The notes beneath the pieces are model-generated. The model did not search any database. It saw only the letters and a list, made by a program, of their open reading frames with translations, and was not told the origin of the DNA. Below, piece by piece: positions 2,406 to 23,323 of a stretch of 32,000 nt of DNA (its first letter is position 1; every line of letters starts with the position of its first letter). The position numbers and the translations under genes are program-made. Origin of the DNA: Candidatus Iainarchaeum sp. (lineage in GTDB: Archaea; Iainarchaeota; Iainarchaeia; Iainarchaeales; 0-14-0-20-34-12); NCBI GenBank assembly GCA_030649345.1, contig JAUSKK010000016.1, forward strand, positions 36,788-68,787, in the 5' to 3' direction.

Positions 2406-2438
2406 ATATAATTATTCCCTTCAGTTCTTTTTATACTA
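2404..2438. promoter_or_regulatory. Interdigitated divergent promoters in a 34-bp intergenic gap
   Basis: atatataatta (2404-2414) lies about 26-35 nt upstream of the + ATG at 2440. ctttttatac (2427-2436) lies about 22-31 nt upstream of the minus ATG at 2405. There is no room for a Shine-Dalgarno leader, which fits leaderless transcripts in both directions. Confidence 0.4.
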
Positions 2439-2439
2439 T

Positions 2440-2892: not shown

Positions 2893-2894
2893 TT

Positions 2895-3449: not shown

Positions 3450-3611
3450 TTCACAACCTTTTATTCACTAATTTGTGTGCTTTGCTTTAGATTAAAGTTA
3501 TGGTTTAACTTACTTTCAGGTCTGTATTAGTGCATATTTCAAAATGTTCATACTTGCTCATACTGTGTCCTATTCGTTCGCCTATTTAAATTTTCGAATC
3601 GTTTTCTTAGT

Positions 3612-5006
3612 ATGGAACAAGTTGTTCAAATTGAACCCACTCTTTTTCGTGAATACGATATTCGAGGCATAGTAGATCAAGATTTAACACCGCAAACCAT
3701 TCAATGGATTGGTCAAGCTTTTGGAACATATTTAAAAAACAAAAAAATTTCTGATTGTGTCGTAGGCTTTGATGCCCGTTCGTATTCTGAAAAAGTTTCC
3801 AAAGACCTTATTCAAGGTTTACTGAAAACTGGAGTCAATGTTATTTCCATTGGCACATGTTTAACTCCAATGCTGTATTTTGCTCAATTTAATTTAAATA
3901 TTTCTGCCGGGGTCATGGTGACAGCTTCGCATAATCCGAATGGCTGGACTGGATTCAAACTAAGTTATACTCCGGGTTTGACTTTAGGCACGGAAGAAAT
4001 TCAAGAACTGCATCAAATGATTTTAAATCAAAACTTTGTTTTCGGAAAAGGAATTGAAAAACAAAAGTCTATCACTGAACCGTACATTAAAGAATTGGTT
4101 CAAAAAATTAAGCTTAAACAAAAACCCAAAATTGTAGTCAATACCAGAAATGGAACAGCTGCTTTGTTTGCGCCAGAGTTATTTAAGTTAGCTGGCTGTC
4201 AAGTGATTGAACAATTTTGTTCTCTGGATACTTTATTTCCAAACGGAAACCCCAACCCAAGTTTGCAAGATATGCTGGAAGAAACTGGAAAAAAAGTAAT
4301 CCACGAAAAAGCAGACTTGGGTTTTGCTTTTGACGGCGATGGAGACAGATTGGGAATTGTGGATTCTAAAGGTAATCCAATTTATGCTGACAAAATTGCC
4401 TGCGTTTTATCCCAGCATATTTTGAAAAAACAACCGTATGCTTCCATTGTATTTGATGTCAAATGTTCTCAGGCTTTGCCGGATGTTATTGCTCAAAGTA
4501 AAGGAATTCCAGTTATGTGGAAAACAGGACATTCGCACATTAAACATAAAGCTAAAGAAATCAAAGCAGCCTTTGCAGCTGAACGCTCTGGCCATTTCTT
4601 TTTCTTTGACAGATACTATGGCTATGATGATGCCTTGTATACTGGTTTGCGTGTCTTGGAAGTTTTAGAATCTGAAAAAAAATCTTTGCATGAGCTCATT
4701 CAACAATTGCCGCATTATGTTACAGCTCCAGTTTATGCTGTAACTTGCAGAGACACTGTCAAATATCAAGTGGTTGAAAAAATGGTGAAAAATTTAAAAC
4801 AAAAATTTCCCAAAGTCAATGACATTAATGGAGCTCGTGTAGAATTTCCAGACGGCTTTATGCTGGTGCGCGCTTCCTCCAATGAACCTATCCTGGTTTT
4901 AGTATTTGAAGCCAAAAGCGAAAAAAGATTGGAAGAATTTAAAACAATTATGAAAACAGAATTAAGCCAATATCCTGAAATTGGAAAAGAATGGCATTAC
5001 AATTAA
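3612..5006 (+). CDS. Phosphomannomutase / phosphoglucomutase (alpha-D-phosphohexomutase family)
   Basis: FREYDIRG N-terminal motif, active-site loop TASHNPNGWTGFK, metal-binding loop FDGDGDRLG. 464 aa. A TATA-like tatttaaa lies about 27 nt upstream of the ATG. Confidence 0.95.
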   Translation: MEQVVQIEPTLFREYDIRGIVDQDLTPQTIQWIGQAFGTYLKNKKISDCVVGFDARSYSEKVSKDLIQGLLKTGVNVISIGTCLTPMLYFAQFNLNISAGVMVTASHNPNGWTGFKLSYTPGLTLGTEEIQELHQMILNQNFVFGKGIEKQKSITEPYIKELVQKIKLKQKPKIVVNTRNGTAALFAPELFKLAGCQVIEQFCSLDTLFPNGNPNPSLQDMLEETGKKVIHEKADLGFAFDGDGDRLGIVDSKGNPIYADKIACVLSQHILKKQPYASIVFDVKCSQALPDVIAQSKGIPVMWKTGHSHIKHKAKEIKAAFAAERSGHFFFFDRYYGYDDALYTGLRVLEVLESEKKSLHELIQQLPHYVTAPVYAVTCRDTVKYQVVEKMVKNLKQKFPKVNDINGARVEFPDGFMLVRASSNEPILVLVFEAKSEKRLEEFKTIMKTELSQYPEIGKEWHYN

Positions 5007-5019
5007 TGGTGATTAATTT

Positions 5020-6030
5020 ATGAAAAAATTACGAATTGCAATCAATGGTTTTGGAAGAATTGGACGATTATTTTATCGAATTGCTTTAGAACATCCAAAT
5101 CTAGAAGTGGTTGCAGCCAATGATTTAGGTTTAACTCCTGTTCTGGCTAATTTATTAAAATTTGATTCAGTTTACGGAAAATTCAATCATTCTATTTCAG
5201 TCCAAAACGAAACCATTCAAGTAGATCAACATTCAATTCAATTTTTTCACGAACGCGATCCTGTAAATTTGCCTTGGAAAAATTTAGACATTGATTTAGT
5301 TTTGGACGCTACCAGTTTGTTTCGAAAACGAGAACAATTAGAACCTCACTTAAAAGCCGGAGCCAAAAAAGTACTCATTGCAGTGCCGCCCAAAGATGAA
5401 AGCATTCAACAAATTGTCTTATGTGCGAACAAACCAGTATACGATCCAAAAAAACACGATATTGTAAGCATGGCTTCTTGTACTACCAATTCAGCAGTTC
5501 CTTTAGCTTTGGTTTTACACAAAGAATTTGGAATCGAAAAAGGATTCATTAACACTACGCATGCTGTAACCATGGATCAATCTTTACTGGATGCATCCAA
5601 CAAAGATATGCGCCGGGCCAGAAATTCTATGTTGAATATTATTCCAACCAGTACAGGTTCGGCCAAAGCAGTAGGAGTTGTTATTCCAGAACTTAAAGGA
5701 AAATTAAACGGAGTGGCTATGCGGGTGCCCATCAGTGCAGGATCGATTACAGACTTAACCGTTAAATTATCTAAAGCAAGCACTGTTGAAGAAGTGAATC
5801 AAAAATTCAAGCACTATGCGCAAACTTCTTTGAAAGGCTTTTTAGAATACTCTGAAGAAGAATTGGTCAGCTCAGATATTGTTGGAAATTCAAATACGTG
5901 TATTTTTGACTCCAAACAAACCATGGTTATTGGAGATTTAGTGAAAGTCTTAGGCTGGTACGACAATGAATTTGGGTATGCCAGCAAACTAGCGGATTTT
6001 GCAGATTATATTTTAGAACAAGGTTTTTGA
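5020..6030 (+). CDS. gap: Glyceraldehyde-3-phosphate dehydrogenase, class I (bacterial/eukaryotic type)
   Basis: INGFGRIGR Rossmann motif, catalytic SCTTN, WYDNEFGY near the C-terminus. GGTGAT Shine-Dalgarno upstream. Starts 13 bp after the previous gene. Confidence 0.96.
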   Translation: MKKLRIAINGFGRIGRLFYRIALEHPNLEVVAANDLGLTPVLANLLKFDSVYGKFNHSISVQNETIQVDQHSIQFFHERDPVNLPWKNLDIDLVLDATSLFRKREQLEPHLKAGAKKVLIAVPPKDESIQQIVLCANKPVYDPKKHDIVSMASCTTNSAVPLALVLHKEFGIEKGFINTTHAVTMDQSLLDASNKDMRRARNSMLNIIPTSTGSAKAVGVVIPELKGKLNGVAMRVPISAGSITDLTVKLSKASTVEEVNQKFKHYAQTSLKGFLEYSEEELVSSDIVGNSNTCIFDSKQTMVIGDLVKVLGWYDNEFGYASKLADFADYILEQGF

Positions 6031-6031
6031 A

Positions 6032-7258
6032 ATGCATGATTACGAAAAATTGCCTTACATTAATGGACAAGATTTAACTGGAAAAACTGTTCTAGTTCGA
6101 GTTGACTTAAACACCAGTGTCCAAAATGGAAAAATTACTTTAAGTCCAAGATTATTCGAGCACAGCAATACTTTAGAAGATTTATCGGACCGCAATGCTA
6201 AAGTTGTAGCTGTAAGCCATCAAGGAAGAAAAGACAGAGATGATTTTGTTTCCTTAGAACAACATGCTGAAGTCTTAGAACATTTAACTGGAAAACATGT
6301 ACAATTTTGTTCCTGGGATGATGACTATATTTCCAAAATTAAAGAACTTAAAAACGGAAATATTTTGGTTTTAGACAACACACGTTTTTTAGATTACGAA
6401 ACTCAAGAACTAAGCGCAGAAGAACATGCTGAAAATCCTAAAGTTAAAGAATTAGCCAAAGTATGCGATATGTTTGTTTTAGATACTCTAAGTGTAGCGC
6501 ATAGATCTCATGCTTTGGTGGTAGGTTTAATGCCGTTATTGCCGAGTTTTATTGGTCCAGTTTTAAGAAAAGAATTAAAGGCTTTGAAAAAAATTGTGAC
6601 AGCCGATCATGGTTCTGTTTTAATTTTAGGCGGAGCCAAAGTAGAAGAATCTTTGGAAGCCATGAAAAAAATGTTAACTGCGGAAAAGGTTGACTTAGTT
6701 TTATTGGGTGGAATTCCAGGCGAGCTTGCAATCATTGCAAAAGGAGAAAATTTAGGAAAAAAACAACACTGGCTTCAAGAAAAAGGATACATTCAATTCG
6801 TGCCTTTGCTGAAAGAATTTTTAGAACGCTACGAAGATCGTATATTAATTCCGGTTGATTTTGCAGTTGAACGAAATTTGCGCAGAAAAGAAATTTCTTT
6901 AGCTGAATTACCCATGCATGAAACCATCTATGATATCGGAGAAGTCACAGCACAAATGTATGCCTCCAAATTAGAAAATGCAAAACTCGTAATTTTTAAC
7001 GGGCCAGTTGGAGTATTTGAAAAATATCAATTTTCGTATGGCACCAGAAAACTTTTGTCAGCTTTAGCAGACTCTCGTGCCTTTTCTGTAATTGGCGGAG
7101 GAGATACTTTGACTGCCATTTCTTCTTTGGGTTTTAAAGAACGAGAATTTTCTCACACCAGTTTAGCTGGAAAAGCTTTGCTGGATTTCTTGGCAGGAAA
7201 CAAAGTAGCTGCCTTGGCTGCTATTGAAAAATATGCACCGAAAGTTGAAATAAAATAA
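6032..7258 (+). CDS. pgk: Phosphoglycerate kinase (archaeal-type sequence)
   Basis: VLVRVDLN, VSHQGRKDRDDFVSLEQHA, LDNTRF and GGGDT. 408 aa. Starts 1 bp after the gap stop. Confidence 0.95.
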   Translation: MHDYEKLPYINGQDLTGKTVLVRVDLNTSVQNGKITLSPRLFEHSNTLEDLSDRNAKVVAVSHQGRKDRDDFVSLEQHAEVLEHLTGKHVQFCSWDDDYISKIKELKNGNILVLDNTRFLDYETQELSAEEHAENPKVKELAKVCDMFVLDTLSVAHRSHALVVGLMPLLPSFIGPVLRKELKALKKIVTADHGSVLILGGAKVEESLEAMKKMLTAEKVDLVLLGGIPGELAIIAKGENLGKKQHWLQEKGYIQFVPLLKEFLERYEDRILIPVDFAVERNLRRKEISLAELPMHETIYDIGEVTAQMYASKLENAKLVIFNGPVGVFEKYQFSYGTRKLLSALADSRAFSVIGGGDTLTAISSLGFKEREFSHTSLAGKALLDFLAGNKVAALAAIEKYAPKVEIK

Positions 7259-7273
7259 TTATTTTTTTAACAT

Positions 7274-8020
7274 TTAGTCGTACGCACTTATTAATTCACT
7301 GATGAGACTTTTTGCTTGGTCTAAAGTACAATAACTGGATGCTGGAGTATTTTGATAGTTTACAGTTCCTGCATTTTGGTTACTGGTTACATTCGTTTTT
7401 CCATGAGAATCATGATACTCGTAGACATACCCATTTTTTAGAAGAACAACTATGTCATAAGCAAAATCATCAATATTTTCTCTGTTGCTGCCAACTGCAT
7501 TGGAAGTATTAATATACTCTGCAAAAGCAGCTTGTCCAAGATCTGAAATGGGAACAACTGTTCGCTGTGTAGTTTTTTCATATTCCATATCTTCATTAAA
7601 TTGAGCCAAAGTAGATTTACTAAGCATACCGTTCTGAGCACCAAAAGATATGTCAAAGCTAAATTCATCTCCAATAATCGTCATGCATGATCCATCGCTT
7701 CCAACATTCCTGCGATTCCCTTCTGTACTGGGACAAGATATATTTCCTGTTATAGTACAATATCTTTTGACTAAATCTGCATTAAGACAAATTGTGCCTG
7801 GAGTGGCAATTTCGCTAGTGCAACTGTATTTTGAAGGTTCAATTGCAGAATCAACAGTAGCTGCTGTTTCAGATGAAGCTGTATTGGTATTTGTTTGGCT
7901 AATTGAATTCTGTGAACTTCCAGTTTCATTTGTTGAAGTTGTCTGCGTGTCTGATTGTGTGCATCCAGTTAAGACTGCAAGAACTAAAATTAAAATACCA
8001 ATTTTCAGTTTTAATTGCAT
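7274..8020 (-). CDS. Secreted lipoprotein-like protein with a Ser/Thr-rich linker (248 aa)
   Basis: I use the internal ATG at 8020. The N-terminus MQLKLKIGILILVLAVLTGC has an L-T-G-C lipobox-like end. A TQSDTQTTSTNETGSSQNSISQTNTNTASSETAAT linker and a Cys-containing globular part follow. No family recognised. Confidence 0.7.
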   Translation of the reverse strand: MQLKLKIGILILVLAVLTGCTQSDTQTTSTNETGSSQNSISQTNTNTASSETAATVDSAIEPSKYSCTSEIATPGTICLNADLVKRYCTITGNISCPSTEGNRRNVGSDGSCMTIIGDEFSFDISFGAQNGMLSKSTLAQFNEDMEYEKTTQRTVVPISDLGQAAFAEYINTSNAVGSNRENIDDFAYDIVVLLKNGYVYEYHDSHGKTNVTSNQNAGTVNYQNTPASSYCTLDQAKSLISELISAYD

Positions 8021-8112
8021 GTGATCTAATAAGAATCTTATTCTTTTTAAATCTTTCAGTTGAAAATGGACTTGTTTAATATCCAATTGCATCAGCTGTT
8101 GACTTGTGCATT

Positions 8113-8394
8113 TTATTTGACTTCAACACCAAACTTTGTTTTCAAAGCATCAATTAAATCTCGGACTTGTACTCCATTGGTTCTAGCAATTGCTTTAACT
8201 CTGCCTAAATTAATTATACGTAAATCGCCTTTCACACTTTTCACTAAATTGGTGGCAGTTATAGCAACCTGAGAAGCGTACCGTTTGGGCACCCGATTCG
8301 CTCTGAGTTTCTTTACATCCAAGTGACGTGTAGTTCTTTTGGGTGTCAGCACTGGCTTTCCTTTAGGTCGAACTCTTCCAGCAGGCATATACAT
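8113..8394 (-). CDS. Small basic protein (93 aa), probably nucleic-acid binding
   Basis: Arg/Lys/Pro-rich N-terminal tail (AGRVRPKGKPVLTPKRTTRH). C-terminal helical segment LGRVKAIARTNGVQVRDLIDALKTKFG, which looks SAP/HeH-like by eye. G+C is higher than in the neighbours. No firm family call. Confidence 0.6.
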   Translation of the reverse strand: MYMPAGRVRPKGKPVLTPKRTTRHLDVKKLRANRVPKRYASQVAITATNLVKSVKGDLRIINLGRVKAIARTNGVQVRDLIDALKTKFGVEVK

Positions 8395-8423
8395 TTAGTT
8401 GTTCAGGTTCCCTAATATACTTA
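8387..8423. promoter_or_regulatory. Second interdigitated divergent promoter pair (28-bp gap)
   Basis: atatacattta (8387-8397) lies about 26-36 nt upstream of the + ATG at 8423 and overlaps the first codons of the minus gene. ctaatatactta (8412-8423) lies about 18-29 nt upstream of the minus ATG at 8394. Confidence 0.4.
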
Positions 8424-9580
8424 TGTCTAAAGAACAAAACTTAGTTCCGGCTTTAGAAATTCCGAATATTACTTTGGCTTTCTTGGTTCAAGAACTCCAG
8501 CCTCAATTATTGAATGCCTATGTCAACAAAATCCAACAAATGTCCAATCAAATTCTTAAATTCAAAATTCACACAAAAACCGGAGATCGCACTTTATTAA
8601 TTACATCCAATTCAATTTACTTTACCAATTATTCTACGCAAGCTAAACCCAATCCTACTTCATTTGCTTCTTTTTTAAACAAACACTTGTACAATGAACG
8701 CATTTTAAAATTTGAACAAATAACCAGCGAACGAATTATTGTACTTGAATTTCGTTCCTGTAAATTATATTGTGAATTGTTTGCGCAAGGAAACATTATT
8801 CTCACCGATTTAAACAATCAAATTTTGATGCCATTCAAACCCAAATCTTGGAGTGTACGTACTCTCCGAAAAGGAGAAACCTATCAATTGCCTCCAGCCC
8901 GCGGTTCCAATCCATTTACTGTTTCTGTCCAAGAATTTTCCAAAGCCATTCAAGCCAGTCCTAAAAATTTAGTTCAATCTTTAATTGCAACTGTCAATTT
9001 AGCTCCCGTAATTGCTGAACAAATTTGTGCGGATATAAAACTCGAAAAAACAATTCAACCCAATACTTTGACTTCCAAACAAATTCAATCCTTATTTCAT
9101 CAACTGCAATTTTATTACATCCAATCTTTGCAAAAAATACCCCAACCCAGCTTATTGGAAAACCCAACTAAAACTATTCTTTTACCTTATTCTTTGCCTT
9201 TACACGTTCAATTTGTATCCAAAGAATACACTTCTTTTACAGAAGCCTTGGATGAACTTAATTTAGGAAAAATTACTCAATCCAATCCTCAAGAAGTTGA
9301 AGAACAAAAAACTCAAACCAAAAAATTTTCAGAATTAGAATATTCCATTCAACAACAGCATGTTTTATTCAAAGAATGCGAAGAAAATGCTGTTCTGTAT
9401 GCTCAATTGGGCGAAAAAATTTATGAAAATTATTCAGCTTTGTCTGAAGTAATTTTATGGATTCAAGAAAATACAAACCCGAAAATAAATTCCCCTGAAA
9501 TTCTTGAAAAACTTAAGCAAAAATTTCCATTCATTCAAGAAATGGATCTCCGAAAAAAAGAATTAATTGTGGATCTATGA
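8423..9580 (+). CDS. NFACT-family protein (RqcH / Rqc2 / NEMF / FbpA-like), short form (385 aa)
   Basis: I use the ATG at 8423; the track start at 8399 is TTG and abuts the divergent gene. NFACT-N signature by eye: LVQELQPQLLNAYVNKIQQ, LLITSNSIYFTN, FASFLNKHLYNERILKFEQITSERIIVLEF, LYCELFAQGNIILTD. Only a coiled-coil-like region follows. Confidence 0.8.
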   Translation: MSKEQNLVPALEIPNITLAFLVQELQPQLLNAYVNKIQQMSNQILKFKIHTKTGDRTLLITSNSIYFTNYSTQAKPNPTSFASFLNKHLYNERILKFEQITSERIIVLEFRSCKLYCELFAQGNIILTDLNNQILMPFKPKSWSVRTLRKGETYQLPPARGSNPFTVSVQEFSKAIQASPKNLVQSLIATVNLAPVIAEQICADIKLEKTIQPNTLTSKQIQSLFHQLQFYYIQSLQKIPQPSLLENPTKTILLPYSLPLHVQFVSKEYTSFTEALDELNLGKITQSNPQEVEEQKTQTKKFSELEYSIQQQHVLFKECEENAVLYAQLGEKIYENYSALSEVILWIQENTNPKINSPEILEKLKQKFPFIQEMDLRKKELIVDL

Positions 9581-9708: not shown

Positions 9709-9975
9709 TTACTCTAAAGGACCAGCTAATTCTCGTTCATCTACAATAAAAACATCGCTTACTGCTGTGACAGCCGAGTAAGGTACTTCAATGGTTTTAT
9801 CTCTTGGCTGAATTTTTTTCACAATCTTACTGGTGCGATCTACTTCAATTAAAAGTTTTTCAATTTCACCGGTTTTTTCGTTAATTAATAAATCGGTTAA
9901 TCTTCCCAATTCATCGCCCCTATTGGTTATGACTCTTTTTGCAGCTAATTGTCTTGCAATCGTATATTTGTACAT
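9709..9975 (-). CDS. PRC-barrel domain protein (88 aa)
   Basis: VITNRGDELGRLTDLLINEKTGEIEKLLIEV...IEVPYSAVTAVSDVFIVD matches the PRC-barrel pattern. GGGGTGA Shine-Dalgarno 5 nt upstream of the ATG. Confidence 0.85.
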   Translation of the reverse strand: MYKYTIARQLAAKRVITNRGDELGRLTDLLINEKTGEIEKLLIEVDRTSKIVKKIQPRDKTIEVPYSAVTAVSDVFIVDERELAGPLE

Positions 9976-10056
9976 TGCTTCACCCCAATATCTAGAAAGA
10001 ATCTTCTTTTTATAAACTTTTCTATCTTTGCTTCTACATAAGAACCAGGGATTGAT

Positions 10057-10407
10057 TTGGCTAAAGATTTAAGTGCAAAAGAAGGCTTTCCGCCTGTTAA
10101 AGAAAAAAAGCCTTCAAACCCTAAAGGTTTCCAAAAATACCTAGTTATGTTTGTAGTGTTTTTTGCAATAGGTATTGCAGTTCAACACTTTGTAATTGAA
10201 CCTATTTTAAATCCCCAACTATGGCAAGAATTGGATCAATTAAAACGAGATAAAGCCTTATTGAATGCAGAAAACAATTCTTGTCTTTCCGAAAAAGCTT
10301 TAACCTCTAACCAAGATCAAACCTGCCAAACTGAATTAAATGCCTGCAATGAACAAAGATTGCAAGTTCAGCAAGAATTAACGGATTGTACGCTCAATTC
10401 GCAATAA
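10057..10407 (+). CDS. Single-pass membrane protein with a coiled-coil, four-Cys ectodomain (116 aa from the TTG start, 86 aa from ATG 10147)
   Basis: TM helix YLVMFVVFFAIGIAVQHFVI. The C-terminal part is Q/E/L-rich with four Cys. ttttataaa lies about 46 nt upstream, with AGGGA before the TTG. The start codon is uncertain. Confidence 0.55.
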   Translation: MAKDLSAKEGFPPVKEKKPSNPKGFQKYLVMFVVFFAIGIAVQHFVIEPILNPQLWQELDQLKRDKALLNAENNSCLSEKALTSNQDQTCQTELNACNEQRLQVQQELTDCTLNSQ

Positions 10408-10446
10408 CCAGCTTGTTTAAAAATTTTCTCTAGCCTAATTCTTTTA

Positions 10447-13400
10447 ATGGCTAAGAGAGTTGCGTTGCGCACAGTTCTATGCATAGCATTATTTTTCTTT
10501 AGCTTAGGCTGTTTGGACCAAAAAAATTTTGCAAAAAACCAACAGCTCTGTTACCAAGTGTCTGTTCTATCTTCACCCAATATTCCTTCATGCACTTCCC
10601 AATCTGCTTGTTTTGAAAAAGTTAATTCTTCTATTTTAAACTTTGATTACTCTGCATTTGATTTACAAATTACTCAAAAATTTTTTGAATACAAAAACCA
10701 GCTGGCTTTATCTTGGCATTATTTTAATCAATCCAAAAACGAATTTGAAAAACTTCAAACCCTGTGCCAATCTGCAGACTTTCAATCTCTGCCAGAACAA
10801 TTAACTCAAATTAGTTTTTACTTAAATCAAGCATTTGAATCTGCCTTGAAAACCAATCGCATTTCTTTTGAAATCATTGCCTTGGAAGCATTCCTTTTAG
10901 AACAACAACACATTGACTTAATTCCAGAAAGCAACCTGCACATACACTACACTATTTTATTGGATAATTTAAATCAAGCTCATTCTCAAATAATTATTCC
11001 CAATTCCTATTACCAAAATTATTCGCAAGCCCTTCAAGAGTTTGAAAATTTTGCACAACTCCAAGGCTTCCAATCTTTTATTGCAGAACCTGTTACTTTT
11101 TTAGATTTATTCCATATTTCGAGTCAGCGTTTTCCCAGTAAACTAAATTCTGAAGAACCTTTCTTTTTTCCAACTCTTAAAACATATGTTCCAAAAGTGT
11201 TCAATTTTGCCTATCAATCCCAGCGCATTCAGGATTCAACTACTTTCCTTCAGCAGCTTCAATCCTTTGATTTAATTCAAAAATATTCACAAATCGCAGC
11301 AGTCCAAAATTCTGTGCCCTCCCAGTTTTCAATTCTTTTTTCCACTCTGGCGTATGAAAAATCTTTTACAATTTCGCAAAATCAAACTCAGTTTAAAATT
11401 CTCCAAACTAAATTAAACGGTCTTGAACTGCGCTGGCAGTCGTTTCAAGAACTAGACTTTAATCGAACATTTCCTGTTCTGTTTTCCTCCATAAATTCAA
11501 AATTGATTCAGCTCCAAGACAAAATTATGCGAAAACGAATTACTTTCGGTGAAGCTTCCAAAATTATTTCCAATTTATCCAGTAATCTTTCCGGAATAGA
11601 TCAAAAACTTTCTTTTTGGTCTTCCGCGATCCAACAAGAACTTTCCAATTGTTCGGAGATTCCCAAAAATGTTTCGCTTAAAGAAAAACTTTGGATTTGC
11701 AGAAATCCACCCAAACCTTTGCTGGAAGTGTCTAAACAATCTATGCATTGCTTAAACGATTGGAATTTACTGCAAAACATTGACTGGATTCAACGCAAAC
11801 TTGATTTAGATTTCAAAACAATTTCCTATTCTGGCTGTCCGCAAACACTTTTTTTGCGTTTAACTCAAATTCATTCTTGGCCGGAAATTCAAAATCTACT
11901 TTTAATTCGAACAGAATTTTTAACCTTATTAGAACAAACGCAACCACTCCGGCCTTTTCTTTCGGAAACACTGCGTATGCGATTTCAAGCACTTGAAAAA
12001 AAAACTTCAGAATTTGAAGTTAATTTTTTTGAAAATAAAATTTCCATTCAAGGTCTTCAAATTTTTTCAACACTTCCTTCTCTTCTGTTGAAACTCCACC
12101 AAGAACTTTTAGATTTGTCTGCAGAAAGTTTAGCATACTATTTTTCTCAAAATCCAATCTTGGAATTTTCTCCAACATACACTCAAGGTAAACTTAAATT
12201 TGAAAACTCTTTTTTTGATTTAAATTATCCAGTTCAATTTTCCATTCCTTGGCCTTTGTCCATTTTAGATTTAGATTTAAATTCTATGAATTCCAGTAAA
12301 ATTCAAATCAGCAAAGATCATTCTAAAATTACGTTTATTTTTCCCCAAATTTCCATGGGAACGTTATCCATTCCTTTTTTTGGAAATACGTCAGCATTTT
12401 TTTCCGAAAATGTGTCTTTTTTGAAAATAACTTCAGAAGAACTCTTGATGAAAAATCAATTAAAAATCCATCAAACCATTCAGCCAGCTAATTTTTTGGT
12501 TGCACTTTCCAATTTTGATTTATCCATAAATCAAGTATTTGTTTTCTTTAATCAATCCAGTATTCCAGCTTACGCTGAAAATAATTCTTTAAAATTTTCA
12601 CTTCCAGTGGTTTCTGCTCAAGATACTTTAGAAATCTTATATTCTTTAAATCAGCCAATACTCGTAACTATTCAATCGCAACAAAACATTCCGGAAAATA
12701 CCCCAAAGTTTACTCAAATTTTGACTTTTTCTGTTCAAAACAAAAGTTCTACTGAATTTTCGAATATTCAAATTACTCTGCCATTTTCTTCCAATCCGTT
12801 CATTGAATCCATTTCTGCTTTTTCTGAAAACGAAAAAATTCCAGTGCAAATGCATTCAGATAGTCTTTCCATTATTTTTCCAAAACTTTATCCTAAAGCG
12901 CAAGCTGTTTTTTCTGTAAATTTGGACATCGAAAACCGTTCTCAATTTTTTCAAGCACGCATAACTGAACTCGAAGAAAAATCACTCCAGCTTCAAAATC
13001 CAGAAATGTATTCTATGCAAATACTGGCATTTAAACAAAAACAAGGATTGTCTGAAGATTTTGACCAATTATTGGCATTGGAAAAACAAATTCAAATTTC
13101 TCTGGAAACCGAAATTAAAAATCAAGAATTTTTAGATCAATTTCGTTTTAAAGAAAATTTGTTTTTAATCCAGCAAAAAAATTTGACTCATGACTTTAAT
13201 TTACTGAACCAGTCTTTACCGATTGAGTTTCAGCAAGCTCAGCAATTCTATCAAGACGCACGCTCCAGTTTAAATTCTGATCCAGTTCAATCTATGCGCT
13301 GGCTAACCCAAGCTCAAATAACTTTAAATAAAATAAATTTTGAAACCTACTTTAAGTCAACTCAGCAGGTATTGGAAGAAAAATTTCTGGAATTAAAACA

Positions 13401-14256
13401 AGTCCACGAATTTCTTGCAAGTCTGAATATTTTAGATTCCAGTGAAACAACATTGTTTTTTTCTCTTCAAGACAAAATCCAATTCATTTCTTCTGTTCAA
13501 ATCATTCAATCTTCTTTTTACGATGTATTTAAAGAATTTTTTTCCAACTCTCAAGACTTGAATTTAACCCAAATACGTTTGCTGAAAACAGCTCAAGCTC
13601 ATGCTGGGACTGAAATTAAAAAATTTCGTACTCTGCTGGAGTTTCCAGAATTACCTAAACTTAAAGCAGAACTGGAAGCTGTTCAGTCTCATTCTTGGTT
13701 GTCGGATTATTATTTTCCTTTGTTAACTCTTAAAGATTTAGATTTAATGCAAACCACTATAGACAAAATTATTCAAAGTTCTTTGTTTTCCAAATTGGAA
13801 TCTTTTGAAAATGATCTTGAAACCAATATGCTGCAAGCCTTGAAAGCTTTTCATAAAATTGAACCAGAATTAATTCAAAAAATTCAATTAATGGAGTCAT
13901 TTCAATTTTCGCTGCGTTCTTTTTCTGCAGAATTGCAAAAAGACGCTATGCTTTTTTATGAAAAAGCTCAAGCAACAGGATTAGATACTGCTGAATTCAA
14001 AACTGCTTTAGATAAAGCCAAACGCTTAATTGAAAATAAAAATTACTTGAAATCTATTTCCATTACAGGTTTACTAACTACAGTTCCATCTTCTTCTGTT
14101 TTTCCCATTCATTGGGTTTTATTATTTTGCGTTTTATTGATTACCTCATTTTTAGGATATAAAAAAATAACGCAACCCAAACTTAAAAAAAGAAAACGCA
14201 AATTGCGTTCTTTACTTTCGAGTCCAAAGAACAATCAAGATAGCCAAAGCCACTAA
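10447..14256 (+). CDS. Giant surface protein (1269 aa): signal peptide, long Q/L/F/S-rich helical regions, central beta-rich region, C-terminal TM anchor with a poly-basic tail
   Basis: N-terminus MAKRVALRTVLCIALFFFSLGC is a signal with a Cys at its end. I hand-counted about 19 N-x-S/T sequons. The central segment (FSVQNKSSTEFSNIQITLPF...) looks like a beta-sandwich. The C-terminus is VLLFCVLLITSFLGYKKITQPKLKKRKRK. No family recognised. Confidence 0.85.
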   Translation: MAKRVALRTVLCIALFFFSLGCLDQKNFAKNQQLCYQVSVLSSPNIPSCTSQSACFEKVNSSILNFDYSAFDLQITQKFFEYKNQLALSWHYFNQSKNEFEKLQTLCQSADFQSLPEQLTQISFYLNQAFESALKTNRISFEIIALEAFLLEQQHIDLIPESNLHIHYTILLDNLNQAHSQIIIPNSYYQNYSQALQEFENFAQLQGFQSFIAEPVTFLDLFHISSQRFPSKLNSEEPFFFPTLKTYVPKVFNFAYQSQRIQDSTTFLQQLQSFDLIQKYSQIAAVQNSVPSQFSILFSTLAYEKSFTISQNQTQFKILQTKLNGLELRWQSFQELDFNRTFPVLFSSINSKLIQLQDKIMRKRITFGEASKIISNLSSNLSGIDQKLSFWSSAIQQELSNCSEIPKNVSLKEKLWICRNPPKPLLEVSKQSMHCLNDWNLLQNIDWIQRKLDLDFKTISYSGCPQTLFLRLTQIHSWPEIQNLLLIRTEFLTLLEQTQPLRPFLSETLRMRFQALEKKTSEFEVNFFENKISIQGLQIFSTLPSLLLKLHQELLDLSAESLAYYFSQNPILEFSPTYTQGKLKFENSFFDLNYPVQFSIPWPLSILDLDLNSMNSSKIQISKDHSKITFIFPQISMGTLSIPFFGNTSAFFSENVSFLKITSEELLMKNQLKIHQTIQPANFLVALSNFDLSINQVFVFFNQSSIPAYAENNSLKFSLPVVSAQDTLEILYSLNQPILVTIQSQQNIPENTPKFTQILTFSVQNKSSTEFSNIQITLPFSSNPFIESISAFSENEKIPVQMHSDSLSIIFPKLYPKAQAVFSVNLDIENRSQFFQARITELEEKSLQLQNPEMYSMQILAFKQKQGLSEDFDQLLALEKQIQISLETEIKNQEFLDQFRFKENLFLIQQKNLTHDFNLLNQSLPIEFQQAQQFYQDARSSLNSDPVQSMRWLTQAQITLNKINFETYFKSTQQVLEEKFLELKQVHEFLASLNILDSSETTLFFSLQDKIQFISSVQIIQSSFYDVFKEFFSNSQDLNLTQIRLLKTAQAHAGTEIKKFRTLLEFPELPKLKAELEAVQSHSWLSDYYFPLLTLKDLDLMQTTIDKIIQSSLFSKLESFENDLETNMLQALKAFHKIEPELIQKIQLMESFQFSLRSFSAELQKDAMLFYEKAQATGLDTAEFKTALDKAKRLIENKNYLKSISITGLLTTVPSSSVFPIHWVLLFCVLLITSFLGYKKITQPKLKKRKRKLRSLLSSPKNNQDSQSH

Positions 14257-15432
14257 ACCCAAAATTGCACCCTGCATTAATAAAAGAGCTGTGGTATTTT
14301 CTCGGAATCCAATGCTTACTGGTTCACAGGCCGCTAAAACTTTCTCGTTTTCAGTAATTTGGCAGCCTACTTGATAGTTTCCAGTTTGAGTACTGCTGGC
14401 TGTGAATACAATTTCTTTTTCTTCGCCTACATTCATGCGGTTAATATTCACTATTGCATTCCGATCCAATTTTAAATTTTCGTTGTCTTGAATTAATTCA
14501 AATTTTAAATCAAATAAAGGCTGGGTTGAATTGTTTCGAATAACTGCTTTAATTTCTGTATTTTCTGAAGTATTTAAAACTGCCTGCGTAACCAGCAGTC
14601 CGGAAGTTACTTCTATTTTTTCCACAATTTGCAATAAAATATAATTGGAATGCAATTCTTGCTGTTCTTCAAACACATTGGTGTACAATAAAATAGCTGG
14701 AACAAATCCAATCAAATCATGCTGAGAATTTAATTTGGCAGTATACGTAAATGTTTTGCTTCCTTTAGCTGGAATCACTGCGTTTTCATAATACGTGTCT
14801 CCAACCACAGTTAAATCATGCAAGTATTCTTCAGCTACTGGTCGTGCAAAATTTACGTCTACAACAGCATCCTGGCTGCCTGTATTGGTTACTGTAATTT
14901 CAATAGGAATATCTTCTCCCACAAAATACTTTCCATTTTCTGTACTTTGCGTAAAATTCACAGTTTGAATAATGGGTGTTTTATAAAATCCAATTTTTGA
15001 AGACTCCAATAAAACAGCTTTCGTAATACTGTCGCTGGTGCTCAAACATATTTCTAAAGTATTTTCTTCTTGAATTGCGTTTTGGTCTGCCCAAACTCTT
15101 AAAGTACAAGCTGAATCTTCGGAACAATTCATTAATTCGTTGCTGGTTTGTACATTCATTAATTCAATATTATTTAATTTTACTTTTATTGTTCCAGTTC
15201 CTTGACGGGTTGGAGTAAATACTGTATTCAAAGAAAATACAGGATAAAAATCCGCGTCCAAATTTTGACTTAAAAAAGAAACTTCCAAACAATCGGAAAG
15301 ATTTTTTCCATCGATCACTAAATCAGAATATCCTTTTTCTTCAAATGAAGTTTCAGAAAAATCAATCTGAGCACTAACCAGGCCACTTAAACTAATTAAA
15401 CATAACAAAAAAACAATAAATTTTCTATTCAT
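14212..15432 (-). CDS. Surface protein with two CARDB/DUF11-like beta-sandwich domains and a C-terminal TM anchor (406 aa)
   Basis: Signal MNRKFIVFLLCLISLSGLVSA. IEITVTNTGSQDAVVDVNF and IKAVIRNNSTQPLFDLKFEL resemble CARDB-type repeats. The C-terminus is GAILGLVALAILIVLWTRK. GGGGCA Shine-Dalgarno. The 3' end overlaps the 1269-aa gene by 45 bp. Confidence 0.85.
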   Translation of the reverse strand: MNRKFIVFLLCLISLSGLVSAQIDFSETSFEEKGYSDLVIDGKNLSDCLEVSFLSQNLDADFYPVFSLNTVFTPTRQGTGTIKVKLNNIELMNVQTSNELMNCSEDSACTLRVWADQNAIQEENTLEICLSTSDSITKAVLLESSKIGFYKTPIIQTVNFTQSTENGKYFVGEDIPIEITVTNTGSQDAVVDVNFARPVAEEYLHDLTVVGDTYYENAVIPAKGSKTFTYTAKLNSQHDLIGFVPAILLYTNVFEEQQELHSNYILLQIVEKIEVTSGLLVTQAVLNTSENTEIKAVIRNNSTQPLFDLKFELIQDNENLKLDRNAIVNINRMNVGEEKEIVFTASSTQTGNYQVGCQITENEKVLAACEPVSIGFRENTTALLLMQGAILGLVALAILIVLWTRK

Positions 15433-15453: not shown

Positions 15454-15954
15454 TTAAAAGCTTTTCAAGAGCTTTTGTTTCCCCAATACTAATAGTATTT
15501 TACCAAGCGTTTCTTTTATACTATTATTGTTTTGCACGCAAACAACCTTTTTGGTGCCATATTTTCGTAAAGCATGCTTTTTACAATACTCTATGCCTTC
15601 ACAAAAAACATTGTCCAATAATTTTTCCATTTTATACTGTTTGTATTCTAGTCTTTGCTCTAATAACTCTGGATGAACTTGCAAGACAATCGCTAAATCT
15701 ACAGGTAACTTAATTTCGCAAACCATATGCCCTTCAATTACATAGTTTTTCAAGCCTTTAACCTGTTTTTCCAAAGCTTTCTTGAGTTTAGGCAAAGGAA
15801 CTACTAACTCATTTTCTACAGTATCCCAGTGTCCAATATTTTGTTTTACAGATACTTCCATTTCATTAAAGTATTTGAGTTTCAGTTCTTTAGCTAAAGC
15901 TCGAGCAATAGTTGTTTTTCCTGTGCCTGGAGTTCCAGTAATTAAAAGACGCAT
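15454..15954 (-). CDS. Fap7 / adenylate kinase isoenzyme 6-like NTPase
   Basis: MRLLITGTPGTGKTTIARALA P-loop right at the N-terminus. 166 aa, the size and layout of archaeal Fap7-type kinases. Confidence 0.85.
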   Translation of the reverse strand: MRLLITGTPGTGKTTIARALAKELKLKYFNEMEVSVKQNIGHWDTVENELVVPLPKLKKALEKQVKGLKNYVIEGHMVCEIKLPVDLAIVLQVHPELLEQRLEYKQYKMEKLLDNVFCEGIEYCKKHALRKYGTKKVVCVQNNNSIKETLGKILLVLGKQKLLKSF

Positions 15955-16012: not shown

Positions 16013-16396
16013 TTATTTGCGAGTTTTCTTTCGACTGCCTGGGCCATATTTTGGATTCCAGTCTGCTTGTGTTGAAAGGCTTCCCTGAGTTAATCTTTCA
16101 CTTTTTTCTCTAACCTCTTCATAAGAAAGTGGTTTTTTACCACGGCTAACCAAGCGACCCTTTTCTAATTTAAGTTCATGTGGTTTAAGAAAACGATCAA
16201 AAGCTCTCAAATCAGATGCACGCTCAGCAGGTCCTGTGTGTGTAGTAAAACGATTTCCTTTATTTCTTACTGATATATAATGAACCTGAGCCGAAACTCT
16301 GCCTCCACTAGTTCCACGGTCTGTAATTGTTGCACTCAAACGTCCGCCTGCTTTTCTTCTATTTGCAGTTGGTTTTTTTCTAAGTAAAGGTTTCAT
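16013..16396 (-). CDS. Basic hypothetical protein (127 aa), possibly a truncated third member of the paralog A/B family
   Basis: I use the ATG at 16396, preceded by AGGTGA; the track start at 16405 is a GTG lying inside that Shine-Dalgarno sequence. KAGGRLS, GTSGGR, KGNRFTTHTGPAER, DRFLKPHELKLEKGR line up by eye with LLGGRKK, LGGDDG, KGKHTIHLAEKEY, QTFLPKKLF..LKLEKGK of paralog B. Confidence 0.65.
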   Translation of the reverse strand: MKPLLRKKPTANRRKAGGRLSATITDRGTSGGRVSAQVHYISVRNKGNRFTTHTGPAERASDLRAFDRFLKPHELKLEKGRLVSRGKKPLSYEEVREKSERLTQGSLSTQADWNPKYGPGSRKKTRK

Positions 16397-16496
16397 AAGT
16401 TTCACCTAAATACAATGCCTTAATTAGATTTAATTCTAACTTTTTCGAAACTAATAGGGGCTTGGTAGGGGGGAATATGGGGTGAATAGCAAAACA

Positions 16497-16930: not shown

Positions 16931-18028
16931 ATGCATAATTTTGTTCAAAAAACATCCATGCTTTTCTTGTTAGTCTTAGTTTTGGTTAGCTTAGGGTGTA
17001 CTTCAAGTACTCCTTCAGATCAAACAACCAATTCACTGCCTGCAGACACTCAAACAACACTTGGCCAATCGAATGATTCTGATACCACTGTTGATGGCAC
17101 AGCTGGAACTAGTCCAGATACTGACGTTGTTGTAGTTGAATATGAATTTTCTTTGTCTTCCAGTGAACCTATTTCGAGTTTATCTGACTCTGAATTAAGC
17201 TCTGCTGCTGAAGGTTTTTCTAGAATAATTCCTAAAAAAGTCAAATTAGTAAACAGTTTTTCGTTTTCAGATATTGAAACCATTTTAAGTAATTCTGAAG
17301 ATCTGCAAAGTTTTGGATTTAACACTGTCTTGATTCGTATACCGTATACTGTGACTTCAGAAGGATTATTTGAATTAATCCAAAAAGGAAATTTGTCGGA
17401 ATCTGATACTGAAAAATTGTTTGAAACCTATGTTGTTTTAGCTAAACAAAAACATTGGGCTGTATGGATAGCTCCTTCTTTTTCAGTGTCTGAATCATTG
17501 ATTGCATTGCCGGACTTTCAAGTTAAAGCCAAAGAACTTTCGTTTAAATGGGCTGCAGTTGCACAAAAATATTTCGCAGACTTTTTTTCTCCTGCAATTG
17601 TTATAGAATCTGCTTTTCAAAAATTAACGGATAGCGAACGCAGAACTTTAGATGAGACTACTTCGTTTTATGAATCTATTGCATTTAGTTTGCCTACTTA
17701 CTATACTGGCCCGTGTATTGTTTATTTAGCCAATTCAAGTCAGTCAGGTTATTTTAATAAAGGAACTTGCAAATGGGTGGCTTTTGATTTAACTAAAACT
17801 TCAAGTCAATTAACTGCTTCGATTGAACGATTTGAAGCCATTGCAGATAACTGGCAGGTAAAATTTATTCCAGTTCAAATTGTGGACGGAAAAGAACTAT
17901 ACTCAGACTTATTTACCGCACTCCAAGGACAAGAATTCGCTGGCGGTTTAGGCTTAACGAATTTGTCTTGGTTAAATGACAAAGAATTTAGAGATTCTTT
18001 TAAAGAATTTTTAATAGAATTTAAGTAA
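16931..18028 (+). CDS. Secreted lipoprotein-like protein (365 aa), possibly with a TIM-barrel glycosidase-like domain
   Basis: MHNFVQKTSMLFLLVLVLVSLGC signal ending in Cys, then a T/S/D-rich linker. FGFNTVLIRIPY resembles the first strand motif of GH5-type barrels (weak). atttatac lies about 27 nt upstream of the ATG, which suggests a leaderless transcript. Confidence 0.8.
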   Translation: MHNFVQKTSMLFLLVLVLVSLGCTSSTPSDQTTNSLPADTQTTLGQSNDSDTTVDGTAGTSPDTDVVVVEYEFSLSSSEPISSLSDSELSSAAEGFSRIIPKKVKLVNSFSFSDIETILSNSEDLQSFGFNTVLIRIPYTVTSEGLFELIQKGNLSESDTEKLFETYVVLAKQKHWAVWIAPSFSVSESLIALPDFQVKAKELSFKWAAVAQKYFADFFSPAIVIESAFQKLTDSERRTLDETTSFYESIAFSLPTYYTGPCIVYLANSSQSGYFNKGTCKWVAFDLTKTSSQLTASIERFEAIADNWQVKFIPVQIVDGKELYSDLFTALQGQEFAGGLGLTNLSWLNDKEFRDSFKEFLIEFK

Positions 18029-21753: not shown

Positions 21754-21821
21754 CAGAGTGTTGAATGAATAAAAATCATTGATCCATAAGTTTATTCCAT
21801 TAATTAGTATTCAACACTCTG
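21754..21821. repeat. 13-bp perfect inverted repeat with a 42-nt spacer in a divergent intergenic region
   Basis: cagagtgttgaat (21754-21766) and attcaacactctg (21809-21821). They lie between the FKBP start (21626, minus) and the ATG at 21887 (+). Confidence 0.35.
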
Positions 21822-21886
21822 CCGAACCAAATCCATGCCTTTTTAACTTTTTGTTTTATTATATATCTATTCACTATTCTGCGGGG

Positions 21887-23323
21887 ATGTACTTGAATTC
21901 AAATGGATTAACTTCAAATCAAATTTTTATTATTGTAATTGCTGTCTTAATGATTACATCTACAGTAGGCTTTTCTTTAGCTTTTGGAAACAATTCTTCT
22001 ACTCAGCCAGTGGATGATCCTTTATTGAATCAAGCCAATACTTCTACATCTATTGTTTTGGAAGCTAAAGAAGTAGAAGGAATCATTGATCGTTTTTTGC
22101 CTCAAGTTCGAATTGCAGGCTACACCGATAATTTGAATATTGACGAAATTGATGCCCAAATTTTAGCCACGGATTCAGTTGAAACTGTTTTATCTTCTGA
22201 ATTTTCGACCCAAGCCAATTCCAGTCAATTAGTTTATGTTGCAGATGTTGTTCTCCAACAAGACATTACTGCTTTAGATGCCGCAAATGAGTTAACTGAA
22301 AAAGCCAATTTTTTGTCTGAATTGCAAATGATTTCCAAAGCTTTAATTAAATTGCCGGAAAAAGTCACGGCAACCAATGCGGAATTAAATATTTCCAAAG
22401 AATATTCTTTGCCTCAGCCGTTTGTAGAAGCTTTAGCTCAGCTTACGTTTAATGAAGGCGATATTGTTTTCTTGGATCTGCGAATGAATTTAGTTAACAA
22501 TGTAATTCAAATCACCAATGCAGCTATTACTGGAAATGTCAGTCAAACACAATTTGAATTTTCTACACAAGCTAAAGTTAAAGTTGCGGAATTAGAACCT
22601 AGATTGGTTTTTTCCGGAGAATTTATTTACTCTGGTTTTGACGTAAATGTCATTGAACAAGAAATAAAAGAAGAAGTTCAAGACGTAAATGAAACCAAAG
22701 TTCGTGTTTATTTTGGTGAACGCAATATTTTGGTTGGATTAGAACTTATTCGAAATGATTTAAATATTCAAGATTTACAAGCATTGGCTGCAAGAGCTTC
22801 CCTCAATTTTTTAGGAAGTGAAATTTTAACTGACAACAACACAACCACTTTAGCTATTGAATACAACGGAGGTCAATTGGATTATTTTCTTATTCGGGAA
22901 GATTTACTGGCTGCACTTGAAGAAGCAGGCTATCAAAAAGATGTGGATTTTACTTTTTTAGATACCCAAGCAACCATTCAAGGAGAAGTTGTTTTTTCCA
23001 GCCTTGAAGAAATGACTGCCAAAGTAATTGCTTTACGAAAAATTTTATCGGAAAAATACAAAATTACCACAACCGATGTTCCAGTTCATCAAGTCGCAAA
23101 ACTCCAAGCCTTAGAGCCTTTAGTGGATTCGTCTCGAAATCAGTCATTTGATTACAATACTTTGTTTTCGGGTCTTGTATTGGTCGGAAACCAAGTTAAT
23201 GATGAAATTACTTTACCTATTGCAGTACAAGTCCAAGGCCGAACGATTACCTATGCTCAAGGAGTTCAAGGAACCCAGCAAGACATAATTGTAACTCACG
23301 GTCCTGAAGAAGAATCTGAATAA
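21887..23323 (+). CDS. Membrane-anchored or secreted hypothetical protein (478 aa)
   Basis: I use the ATG at 21887; the track start at 21779 is TTG in promoter-like sequence. ttattatatatc lies about 25 nt upstream. The N-terminus is MYLNSNGLTSNQIFIIVIAVLMITSTVGFSLAFG. The remainder is acidic and Q/E/L-rich. No family recognised. Confidence 0.75.
   Translation: MYLNSNGLTSNQIFIIVIAVLMITSTVGFSLAFGNNSSTQPVDDPLLNQANTSTSIVLEAKEVEGIIDRFLPQVRIAGYTDNLNIDEIDAQILATDSVETVLSSEFSTQANSSQLVYVADVVLQQDITALDAANELTEKANFLSELQMISKALIKLPEKVTATNAELNISKEYSLPQPFVEALAQLTFNEGDIVFLDLRMNLVNNVIQITNAAITGNVSQTQFEFSTQAKVKVAELEPRLVFSGEFIYSGFDVNVIEQEIKEEVQDVNETKVRVYFGERNILVGLELIRNDLNIQDLQALAARASLNFLGSEILTDNNTTTLAIEYNGGQLDYFLIREDLLAALEEAGYQKDVDFTFLDTQATIQGEVVFSSLEEMTAKVIALRKILSEKYKITTTDVPVHQVAKLQALEPLVDSSRNQSFDYNTLFSGLVLVGNQVNDEITLPIAVQVQGRTITYAQGVQGTQQDIIVTHGPEEESE

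Follow-up and report, generated by a model that had tools for sequence, protein, structure and literature searches.

The genome of Candidatus Iainarchaeum sp. (assembly GCA_030649345.1) carries, on a stretch of 32,000 nucleotides (nt) of contig JAUSKK010000016.1 (positions 36,788 to 68,787, here called the window), three adjacent genes at window positions 10057 to 15432. They encode a small membrane protein of 116 amino acids (aa), a protein of 1269 aa (the giant) and, on the opposite strand, a protein of 406 aa. An original prediction, made from the letters of the DNA, had regarded them as a dedicated envelope module around an orphan protein, perhaps S-layer-like or for host contact. The locus thus raises the question what kind of protein the giant is, and whether its two neighbours belong to it. 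Our analyses indicate that the giant is very likely a Sec-exported, extracytoplasmic and membrane-anchored member of a large lineage-specific protein family, whose relatives were found together with those of the two neighbours in nearly all of 11 related loci.

The giant belongs to a large family of predicted envelope proteins

To find relatives of the giant, an exhaustive HMMER search was performed with residues 23–1210 against 1.84 billion cluster representatives (clusters at 50% identity). In total, 158 cluster representatives passed E ≤ 1e-3, of which 124 also passed E ≤ 1e-10, so that the protein can no longer be called an orphan. Nearly all relatives are 1050–1430 aa long and match mainly in the first 300–400 residues, with 21–30% identity. 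Two of them bear the source name "hypothetical protein [Candidatus Diapherotrites archaeon]". A word-index search with the giant gave one sole relative, P0002 (29% identity over the first 300 residues and part of the beta core), and a 66-sequence profile again retrieved the window protein and P0002 only; this index misses the divergent family. A metagenome scan yielded one short fragment (L005). The giant matched no Pfam, NCBIfam or PDB sequence entry, and no consistent Pfam or NCBIfam match was observed among 36 diverse family members. Profile matches of the family in the PDB, to designed helical bundles and apolipoproteins, were discarded as compositional only. A viral origin of the giant was also rejected, as there were no relatives in IMG/VR viral contigs. 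Each locus contains one copy of the giant gene, in a core-genome neighbourhood.

The giant is encoded by an open reading frame (ORF) with an ATG start at 10447–14256 (+). The conservation seen in the family alignment identifies the ATG at 10447 as the true start. The public gene call (P0001, 1232 aa) begins at Val38 and is without the signal peptide and lipobox. The N-terminus, MAKRVALRTVLCIALFFFSLGC, has a positively charged n-region and hydrophobic windows over residues 4–24. The signal peptide (residues 1–22; 10447..10512, +) ends in the lipobox-like S-L-G-C, with Cys22 at nt 10510–10512. This signal-peptide pattern holds across the family. A hydrophobic region followed by [GA]-C was found in 133 of 151 members, with G (122 members) or A (11) at position −1, S (67), F (22), A (15) or L (12) at −2, and L (81) or F (26) at −3; the typical family lipobox is therefore L-S-G-C or a close variant. 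The other 18 members, in which no lipobox was detected, are mostly visibly truncated gene calls or fragments, and at least 12 of them begin inside the conserved N-terminal Cys-rich region. Cys22 itself is invariant in all 66 aligned members. The bacterial and archaeal lipobox has been described as [L/V/I][A/S/T/V/I][G/A/S]C, and archaeal lipoproteins bear thioether-linked archaeol; AliA, a component of archaeal lipoprotein lipidation, has been reported in Euryarchaeota and DPANN (PMC12462473). The Cys-terminated signal of the original prediction is thus best read as a lipoprotein signal with putative lipidation of Cys22.

At the other end of the protein, a transmembrane (TM) helix (residues 1219–1238, nt 14101–14160) is followed by a basic tail, KKITQPKLKKRKRKLR (nt 14161–14253; both features 14101..14253, +; from the ORF and its hydropathy), which contains the basic cytoplasmic stretch KLKKRKRKLR. 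The C-terminal TM segment and basic tail are present in 108 of the 112 full-length family members. The anchor and the KKRKRK tail of the original prediction were therefore found as proposed. In addition to Cys22, eight conserved cysteines (35, 49, 55, 107, 402, 418, 435 and 464) are located in the ectodomain. The 66-sequence alignment shows no variation at Cys35, 49, 55, 107, 435 and 464 and almost none at Cys418, and Cys402 and Cys418 are also invariant in the 36-sequence alignment. These eight cysteines fit an oxidising, extracytoplasmic location. Conservation peaks beside the two anchors (2.0–2.15 bits in residues 1–200 and ~1.6 bits in residues 1151–1250) and is lower in the middle of the giant (1.27–1.84 bits per 50-residue block, with a minimum of ~1.27 at 951–1050). 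On the basis of the alignment, this pattern would fit a conserved membrane-proximal base with a more variable distal part.

The composition of the giant was also tested. The ~19 N-glycosylation sequons that had been counted by hand proved exact: 19 N-X-S/T sites are present where composition predicts 11.9 (Poisson p = 0.035), and in shuffled sequences (mean 11.6, standard deviation 3.0) this number was reached in 1.3%. Averaged over 66 family members, 11.9 sites were observed and 11.65 expected. The enrichment is thus real in the window giant but absent as a property of the family, and was dropped as a family hallmark. Similarly, the proposed richness in Q, F and S was seen in the giant (1.7–2.0 times the window background), whereas the family mean for Q is only 4.2%.

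For all three proteins of the locus the bulk is predicted to lie outside the cell, on the evidence of their signal peptides, the positive-inside rule, the invariant ectodomain cysteines of the giant and the immunoglobulin (Ig)-like domains of the 406-aa protein. In agreement with the original prediction, neither homology to a cytoplasmic family nor a topology with the bulk inside the cell was found. The rate of divergence is also in line with this location. Between the window and loci L004 and L011, identity is 67% for FttA, 77–86% for the PRC-barrel protein, 53–61% for the proteasome subunit and 53–55% for the kinase, but only 24–28% for the giant (in which the N-terminal ~300 residues alone align) and 24–26% for the 406-aa protein. 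Across the compared loci, the giant and the 406-aa protein are each 21–31% identical to their counterparts, as against 67% for FttA and 59–86% for the PRC barrel. Strong divergence with a maintained architecture is the pattern of exposed envelope proteins.

Two further ORFs of the window start with a signal peptide of the lipoprotein type, continue in an S/T-rich linker and match no Pfam family. One is a 272-aa ORF at 7274–8092 (−) with the lipobox-like LAVLTGC; the other is a 365-aa ORF at 16931–18028 (+) with LVSLGC, which has the same SLGC as the giant. Predicted lipoproteins seem to be common in this genome.

The giant is predicted to be mostly helical with a beta-sandwich core

An AlphaFold2 model of the giant, built from a 93-sequence alignment, reached a mean predicted local distance difference test (pLDDT) of 84.5. 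The model has an all-alpha N-terminal region (residues 23–568; 10513..12150, +; in the conservation profile the best conserved part of the family) with helices of up to 42 residues, an all-beta core of ~25 strands (residues 571–828; 12157..12930, +) and an all-alpha C-terminal region (residues 831–1209; 12937..14073, +) with helices of up to 49 residues. About 75% of the modelled ectodomain is helical and the core is its sole beta part. This arrangement agrees well with the helical arms flanking a beta-rich core that had been expected from the sequence. Heptad periodicity in the long helices is weak, so that any coiled coils there would be putative.

When the model was compared with the PDB by Foldseek, one match at E ≤ 1e-3 was obtained, chain E of the human oligosaccharyltransferase complex OST-A (6s7o; E = 5e-4), with a target-normalised TM-score of 0.15 and a root mean square deviation (rmsd) of 38.8 Å. 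Chain E is presumably ribophorin I/Ost1, as judged from the chain lengths. The next matches were mu-homology domains of AP2/COPI (TM-score 0.25–0.38), chain E of the yeast OST and beta domains of aminopeptidases, and a DUF11 protein was also among the weak matches of the core. Against BFVD, nothing was found at E ≤ 1e-3. We read these matches as a generic likeness between two-lobed beta-sandwiches and not as homology. Homology to ribophorin I/OST or to TRAP proteins was rejected on account of the low TM-scores and the lack of sequence support.

The two neighbouring proteins

The gene of the 406-aa protein is located at 14212–15432 (−), convergent to the giant gene, with which it shares an overlap of 45 bp. 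Hydropathy and an AlphaFold2 model based on three sequences (pLDDT 68.9; ~80 for the third domain) predict a signal peptide (residues 1–22, nt 15367–15432, −), three beta domains (residues 25–157, nt 14962–15360; residues 174–270, nt 14623–14913; residues 275–377, nt 14302–14610; all −) and a C-terminal TM helix (residues 380–405, nt 14218–14295, −). Pfam CARDB (PF07705) matched residues 282–368 with E = 6.4e-4 and 20.3 bits, which is below the cut-off of 22.7, and a weak TRAP_alpha match was found at residues 169–271. The homologues comprise close ones (59% and 51% identity) and distant ones (21–31%). Six of nine homologues match CARDB (E ≤ 0.1; best E = 3.7e-6). The isolated DUF11/BatD, Transglut_C, TRAP_alpha and TRAP_beta matches in the family point to the same Ig-like superfold. 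Moreover, Foldseek gave 354 PDB matches at E ≤ 1e-3, all of them tandem Ig-like arrays (down to E = 5.6e-10), including ciliary central-apparatus proteins, transglutaminase C-terminal barrels, MG domains of alpha-2-macroglobulin and intimin. The protein had been described with two CARDB-like domains and its own C-terminal anchor. The anchor was found, together with a signal peptide; of the domains, one has a sub-threshold CARDB match and the model contains three instead of two. From these matches and the model, "CARDB-like" appears a reasonable name for the protein. Convergent giant and 406-aa genes overlap in relatives too, by 22 bp in L006 and by 57 bp in the contig of P0004.

The small protein is encoded by an ORF with a TTG start at 10057–10407 (+). 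It has a single hydrophobic segment (residues 24–52) with a TM helix at about residues 28–47 (nt 10138–10197). Hydropathy and alignment give the layout of a basic cytoplasmic N-terminal tail, the TM helix, an H-x-x-[VI]-E-P motif and a helical tail. The motif is conserved at the outer face of the membrane in the homologues, and the extracellular helical tail of ~65 aa contains the four cysteines (76, 90, 97 and 111). The five aligned homologues share G39, H44, E48, L68 and C76. No Pfam family was matched, searches with the family profile in Pfam, NCBIfam and PDB sequences gave nothing consistent, and DivIC/FtsB had no Pfam match in five homologues at E ≤ 1. The single TM segment and four cysteines of the original prediction were thus recovered, and its coiled coil is putative.

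The three genes recur together, as probably separate transcription units

Next, hidden Markov models (HMMs) of the small-protein, giant and 406-aa families were run over the 11 independent loci in which the giant gene is complete (the window, L001, L004 and L006–L013). The three families were found together in nearly all of them, so the trio is syntenic in related genomes. The HMM of the small protein, made from five homologues, matched five more loci, and a copy is located 5′ of the giant gene, on the same strand, in 10 of the 11 loci, at a distance of 39 bp to ~6 kb. In most loci the small gene comes right after a divergent PRC-barrel gene and is parted from the giant gene by AMMECR1 and by assorted insertions (NUDIX genes, toxin-antitoxin pairs, a 1021-aa VWA protein, a DUF5667 protein and a wyosine radical-SAM gene). 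Because AMMECR1 and unrelated genes intervene in most relatives, the tight adjacency of small gene and giant gene in the window and in L007 is the exception, and in the window it is derived. Homologues of the 406-aa protein flank the giant gene in nine loci besides the window. They lie within 3.6 kb 3′ of the giant gene in all nine loci that have at least 5 kb of downstream sequence, and are convergent to it in seven loci and in two short fragments. In L008, which is rearranged and flanked by MutL/MutS and an ELP3-like gene, the 406-aa homologue is co-directional, directly 3′ of the giant gene and away from the kinase gene.

The recurrence of the trio supports a linkage of the three genes but is confounded by general collinearity. 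Four loci (L004, L011, L012 and L013) share with the window a collinear housekeeping block of ~20 kb, which comprises NFACT, PRC barrel, small protein, AMMECR1, giant, 406-aa protein, kinase, FttA, proteasome, FKBP26 and Hel308. As the trio lies inside this conserved block, gene order alone is no proof of a dedicated complex.

The transcription signals were also inspected. A TATA-like element (TTTAAAAATTTT; 10416..10427, +) is centred ~26 nt before the ATG of the giant, and an A/T box was found 20–35 nt before this ATG in eight of nine loci examined. Together with archaeal promoter architecture, the box suggests that the giant gene has its own promoter and gives a leaderless mRNA. Upstream of the small gene, a TATA-like element was read from the sequence ~45 nt 5′ of the TTG (TTTTTATAAA; 10007..10016, +) and may act as its promoter; it is followed by a Shine-Dalgarno-like AGGGA (10047–10051), and similar A/T boxes precede the homologues. 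The 406-aa gene probably is co-transcribed with the kinase gene directly 5′ of it on the same strand (166 aa; 15454..15954, −; Pfam AAA_18 with 2e-14, and NCBIfam PRK03839 with 6e-26, below its cut-off), because the two genes overlap or abut wherever they are adjacent. Their gap is 21 nt in the window, and across nine loci the two genes overlap by up to 17 nt or are up to 43 nt apart; the coupling exists in every locus where both are adjacent and was kept through the rearrangement in L007. The pairing of a cytoplasmic kinase gene with a surface-protein gene is functionally odd. The kinase gene is context and stands outside the surface module. Directly 3′ of the stop codon of the 406-aa gene, within the 3′ coding end of the giant gene, lies a terminator-like palindrome with the core AACGCAAATTGCGTT and a T-run (14193..14211, −), a consensus match only; sites of this kind are no more numerous in the region than expected by chance. 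In a scan for bacterial promoters and terminators, which is ill-suited to archaea, site counts were at chance level.

A model for the envelope proteins and its alternatives

Taken together, we tentatively propose that the family consists of large, vertically inherited, fast-evolving envelope proteins of DPANN (Diapherotrites-type) archaea, which serve a structural role with partners; this full reading is a real possibility that we hold with less than even confidence. According to this model, the giant would be exported by Sec and lipidated at the lipobox Cys, and its C-terminal helix would stay in the membrane with the basic tail inside. Both ends of the ~1190-residue ectodomain would then be held at the membrane, by the lipid at residue 22 and by the TM helix at ~1219. 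Two mostly helical arms may rise from a conserved, disulfide-stabilised, membrane-proximal base and present the more variable beta-sandwich module distally, as a hairpin-like strut. The 406-aa protein, Ig-like and held by its TM helix, could join the giant, perhaps along with the small bitopic protein, to build or space an envelope outside the single membrane, and the result may be the surface layer (S-layer) itself or its anchoring layer.

Several results weigh against this model. In the window giant the lipobox S-L-G-C is canonical at −1 and +1 but not at −3 and −2. The predicted template modelling score (pTM) of the giant model is only 0.52, so that the hairpin geometry is tentative. Known archaeal S-layer proteins are beta-rich and the giant is ~75% helical. 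No S-layer domain (Pfam/TIGRFAM, MSTP/DUF1608-type) was found in the giant, and none consistently in 36 family members. L008 is without the small protein within 10 kb upstream of the giant, and in L007 the 406-aa homologue stays beside the kinase gene, 3.6 kb from the giant. Finally, the three genes are separate transcription units, and their co-location could simply reflect the collinear block. Of the dedicated three-gene module, the recurrent trio was thus retained. The "S-layer-like" label may still apply to the giant, which has a signal peptide and a membrane anchor as canonical archaeal S-layer proteins do, but it is tempered by the missing domain and the helical content.

As an alternative, the three envelope proteins might be neighbours by chromosome collinearity only, with the giant acting alone or with partners encoded elsewhere and no dedicated complex. 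The ~20-kb collinear block, the TATA-like element of the giant gene, the coupling of the 406-aa gene to the kinase gene, and the unrelated genes and toxin-antitoxin pairs inserted between trio members all argue for this explanation, as does L007, which separates the 406-aa gene from the giant and speaks against a strict link. L008, on the other hand, argues for a link between the giant and its partner, as there the 406-aa homologue has left the kinase gene and yet lies directly 3′ of the giant gene on the same strand. In addition, all three proteins are extracytoplasmic, membrane-anchored and similarly fast-evolving. We therefore consider mere collinearity a serious but unlikely explanation. 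The host contact of the original prediction, for which the giant would serve as an adhesin or contact protein and bind to a host or partner cell via the distal beta-sandwich, is somewhat less likely still. Such a role would fit DPANN archaea, which are often episymbionts (PMC6349945), and would also fit the variable ectodomain above a conserved base, the rapid divergence and the resemblance of the beta-sandwich and Ig-like modules to adhesin-type domains. In contrast, the giant gene is single-copy, located in the core genome and uniform in architecture, and belongs to no variable island or multigene family; moreover, the searches with the giant family revealed neither a lectin or protease domain nor any other binding domain.

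We also considered the giant as the extracytoplasmic part of another conserved machine, either of cell division or as an accessory of the translocon or of glycosylation. A role in archaeal cell division has been ascribed to PRC-barrel proteins, and the PRC-barrel gene (59–86% identity) diverges from the small gene in most loci, while the small protein is FtsB-like in shape. The top Foldseek match to chain E of human OST-A, the match to its yeast counterpart and the weak TRAP_alpha and TRAP_beta matches in the 406-aa family would point to the translocon or to glycosylation. However, the low TM-score and high rmsd of the OST match, the absence of a Ribophorin_I Pfam match in 36 members, the occurrence of each TRAP match in only one of nine members, beside CARDB/DUF11 as expected of a generic Ig-like fold, and the absence of DivIC/FtsB from the small-protein homologues make this explanation very unlikely. 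We give hardly any credence to the further idea that the doubly anchored hairpin with its distal beta module is a cell–cell tether or fusogen-like device, which would hold or remodel the contact of the membranes where a DPANN cell meets its partner, with the 406-aa and small proteins as accessories; if true, archaea would possess a membrane-contact machinery of a new class. A milder form of this idea, in which the giant would be the principal envelope layer of Diapherotrites, a non-canonical, mostly alpha-helical and two-anchor one, is improbable in our view, about as much so as the adhesin.

Other features of the region

The window is a piece of a low-GC (~34%) archaeal chromosome. Besides the genes described above it encodes PGM, GAPDH, PGK, an NFACT_N protein, FttA/aCPSF1, a proteasome subunit, FKBP26, a PIN protein and a Hel308-type helicase. 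No tRNA and no Rfam element was found in the window. The PRC-barrel protein (88 aa; 9709–9975, −) is 59–86% identical across loci, whereas the identity of FttA, measured in L004 and L011, is only 67%; the PRC-barrel gene nearly always lies between the NFACT_N gene and the small gene, divergent from the latter. A 514-aa ORF (21779–23323, +) with a TTG start, one TM segment near residues 41–71 and no Pfam family has homologues of 23–24% identity, which L004 and L011 carry at the corresponding place; the collinear block thus contains a further fast-evolving membrane protein.

Two insertion hot spots were observed, one between the PRC-barrel/small gene and the giant gene and the other in the gap after the giant gene. 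Inserts were found at 2326–5391 (+) in L006, at 5902–8781 (−) in L012 and at 14217–14728 (+) in L013, and the inserted genes include those for the 1021-aa VWA protein, a 959-aa DUF5667 protein, NUDIX proteins and a ParE-type toxin-antitoxin pair. Small, very basic putative ORFs that match no family are present near the module in the window (16013–16405, −; 130 aa) and in L004 (14259–14546, +; 95 aa). In L001, a 74-aa ORF (5992–6216, +) directly 3′ of the giant homologue P0002 carries a signal of the archaeal class III (type IV pilin-like), MGFRAQAGLEYLMTYGWALVLIV, and again points to an envelope-gene neighbourhood in that genome.

Comparison with known systems

The small protein shares with FtsB/DivIC-like bitopic coiled-coil proteins a short cytoplasmic tail, a TM helix and an extracellular helix, which is a resemblance only. 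The 406-aa protein shares tandem Ig-like beta-sandwiches with CARDB/DUF11/E-set surface proteins; it differs from CARDB proteins in that its CARDB score is below the Pfam cut-off and in that the Cys-bearing domain 25–157 has no family assignment. The core of the giant has the two-lobed beta-sandwich of Ribophorin I/Ost1 and mu-homology domains (Foldseek E of 5e-4 to 1e-2), but with TM-scores of 0.15–0.38 and no support at the sequence level.

DPANN envelopes mediate unusual lifestyles, and hardly any of their proteins are known beyond a few cultured species. Like the giant, the MSTP-like S-layer proteins and the Micrarchaeum S-layer protein (bioRxiv 10.1101/2021.04.28.441871) are large secreted DPANN surface proteins that may be glycosylated; S-layer proteins of the MSTP-like beta-sandwich type have been reported for several DPANN phyla (bioRxiv 10.1101/2024.05.28.596244). 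The reported DPANN S-layer proteins carry recognisable S-layer domains, for example TIGR01567, whereas the giant matches none and is mostly alpha-helical. With beta structure only at 571–828, its ectodomain is not predominantly beta, and the giant is in no recognised S-layer family.

The giant also resembles two S-layer stalk or anchor proteins, SlaB of the Sulfolobales and the tetrabrachion of Staphylothermus. These proteins have a Sec signal, beta-sandwich module(s), long helices, a C-terminal TM anchor and a paired surface protein. The giant has the Sec signal, beta-sandwich, long helices, C-terminal TM helix, divergence and second surface protein in common with them. It differs in that it has no sequence or fold match to either, has helices on both sides of the beta module and carries an N-terminal lipobox.

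The family appears previously undescribed, widespread and, with two predicted anchors, unusual in topology; it is a solid result for annotation and for the choice of targets rather than an established new system. At 50% identity it comprises at least 158 clusters, whose members bear no annotation other than "hypothetical", and it can now be defined by a clear sequence signature, a confident fold layout and recurrent partners. If the giant is merely another structural surface protein, the value of this definition lies mainly in annotation. The family also offers targets for metaproteomics, cryo-electron tomography and lipoprotein biochemistry in Diapherotrites-type archaea.

The lipobox leads to the last comparison. 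The giant family shares with archaeal lipobox lipoproteins, the substrates of AliA/AliB, a signal that ends in L-[S/A]-[G/A]-C and an invariant Cys. Lipidation is predicted only, and the window motif is the variant S-L-G-C. In known or predicted lipoproteins the lipid is typically the only anchor, whereas the giant family adds a C-terminal TM helix, and to our knowledge no archaeal surface protein that combines both anchors has been described. If the lipobox is used, the giant family would join a lipid anchor and a C-terminal TM anchor in one protein across a whole lineage.

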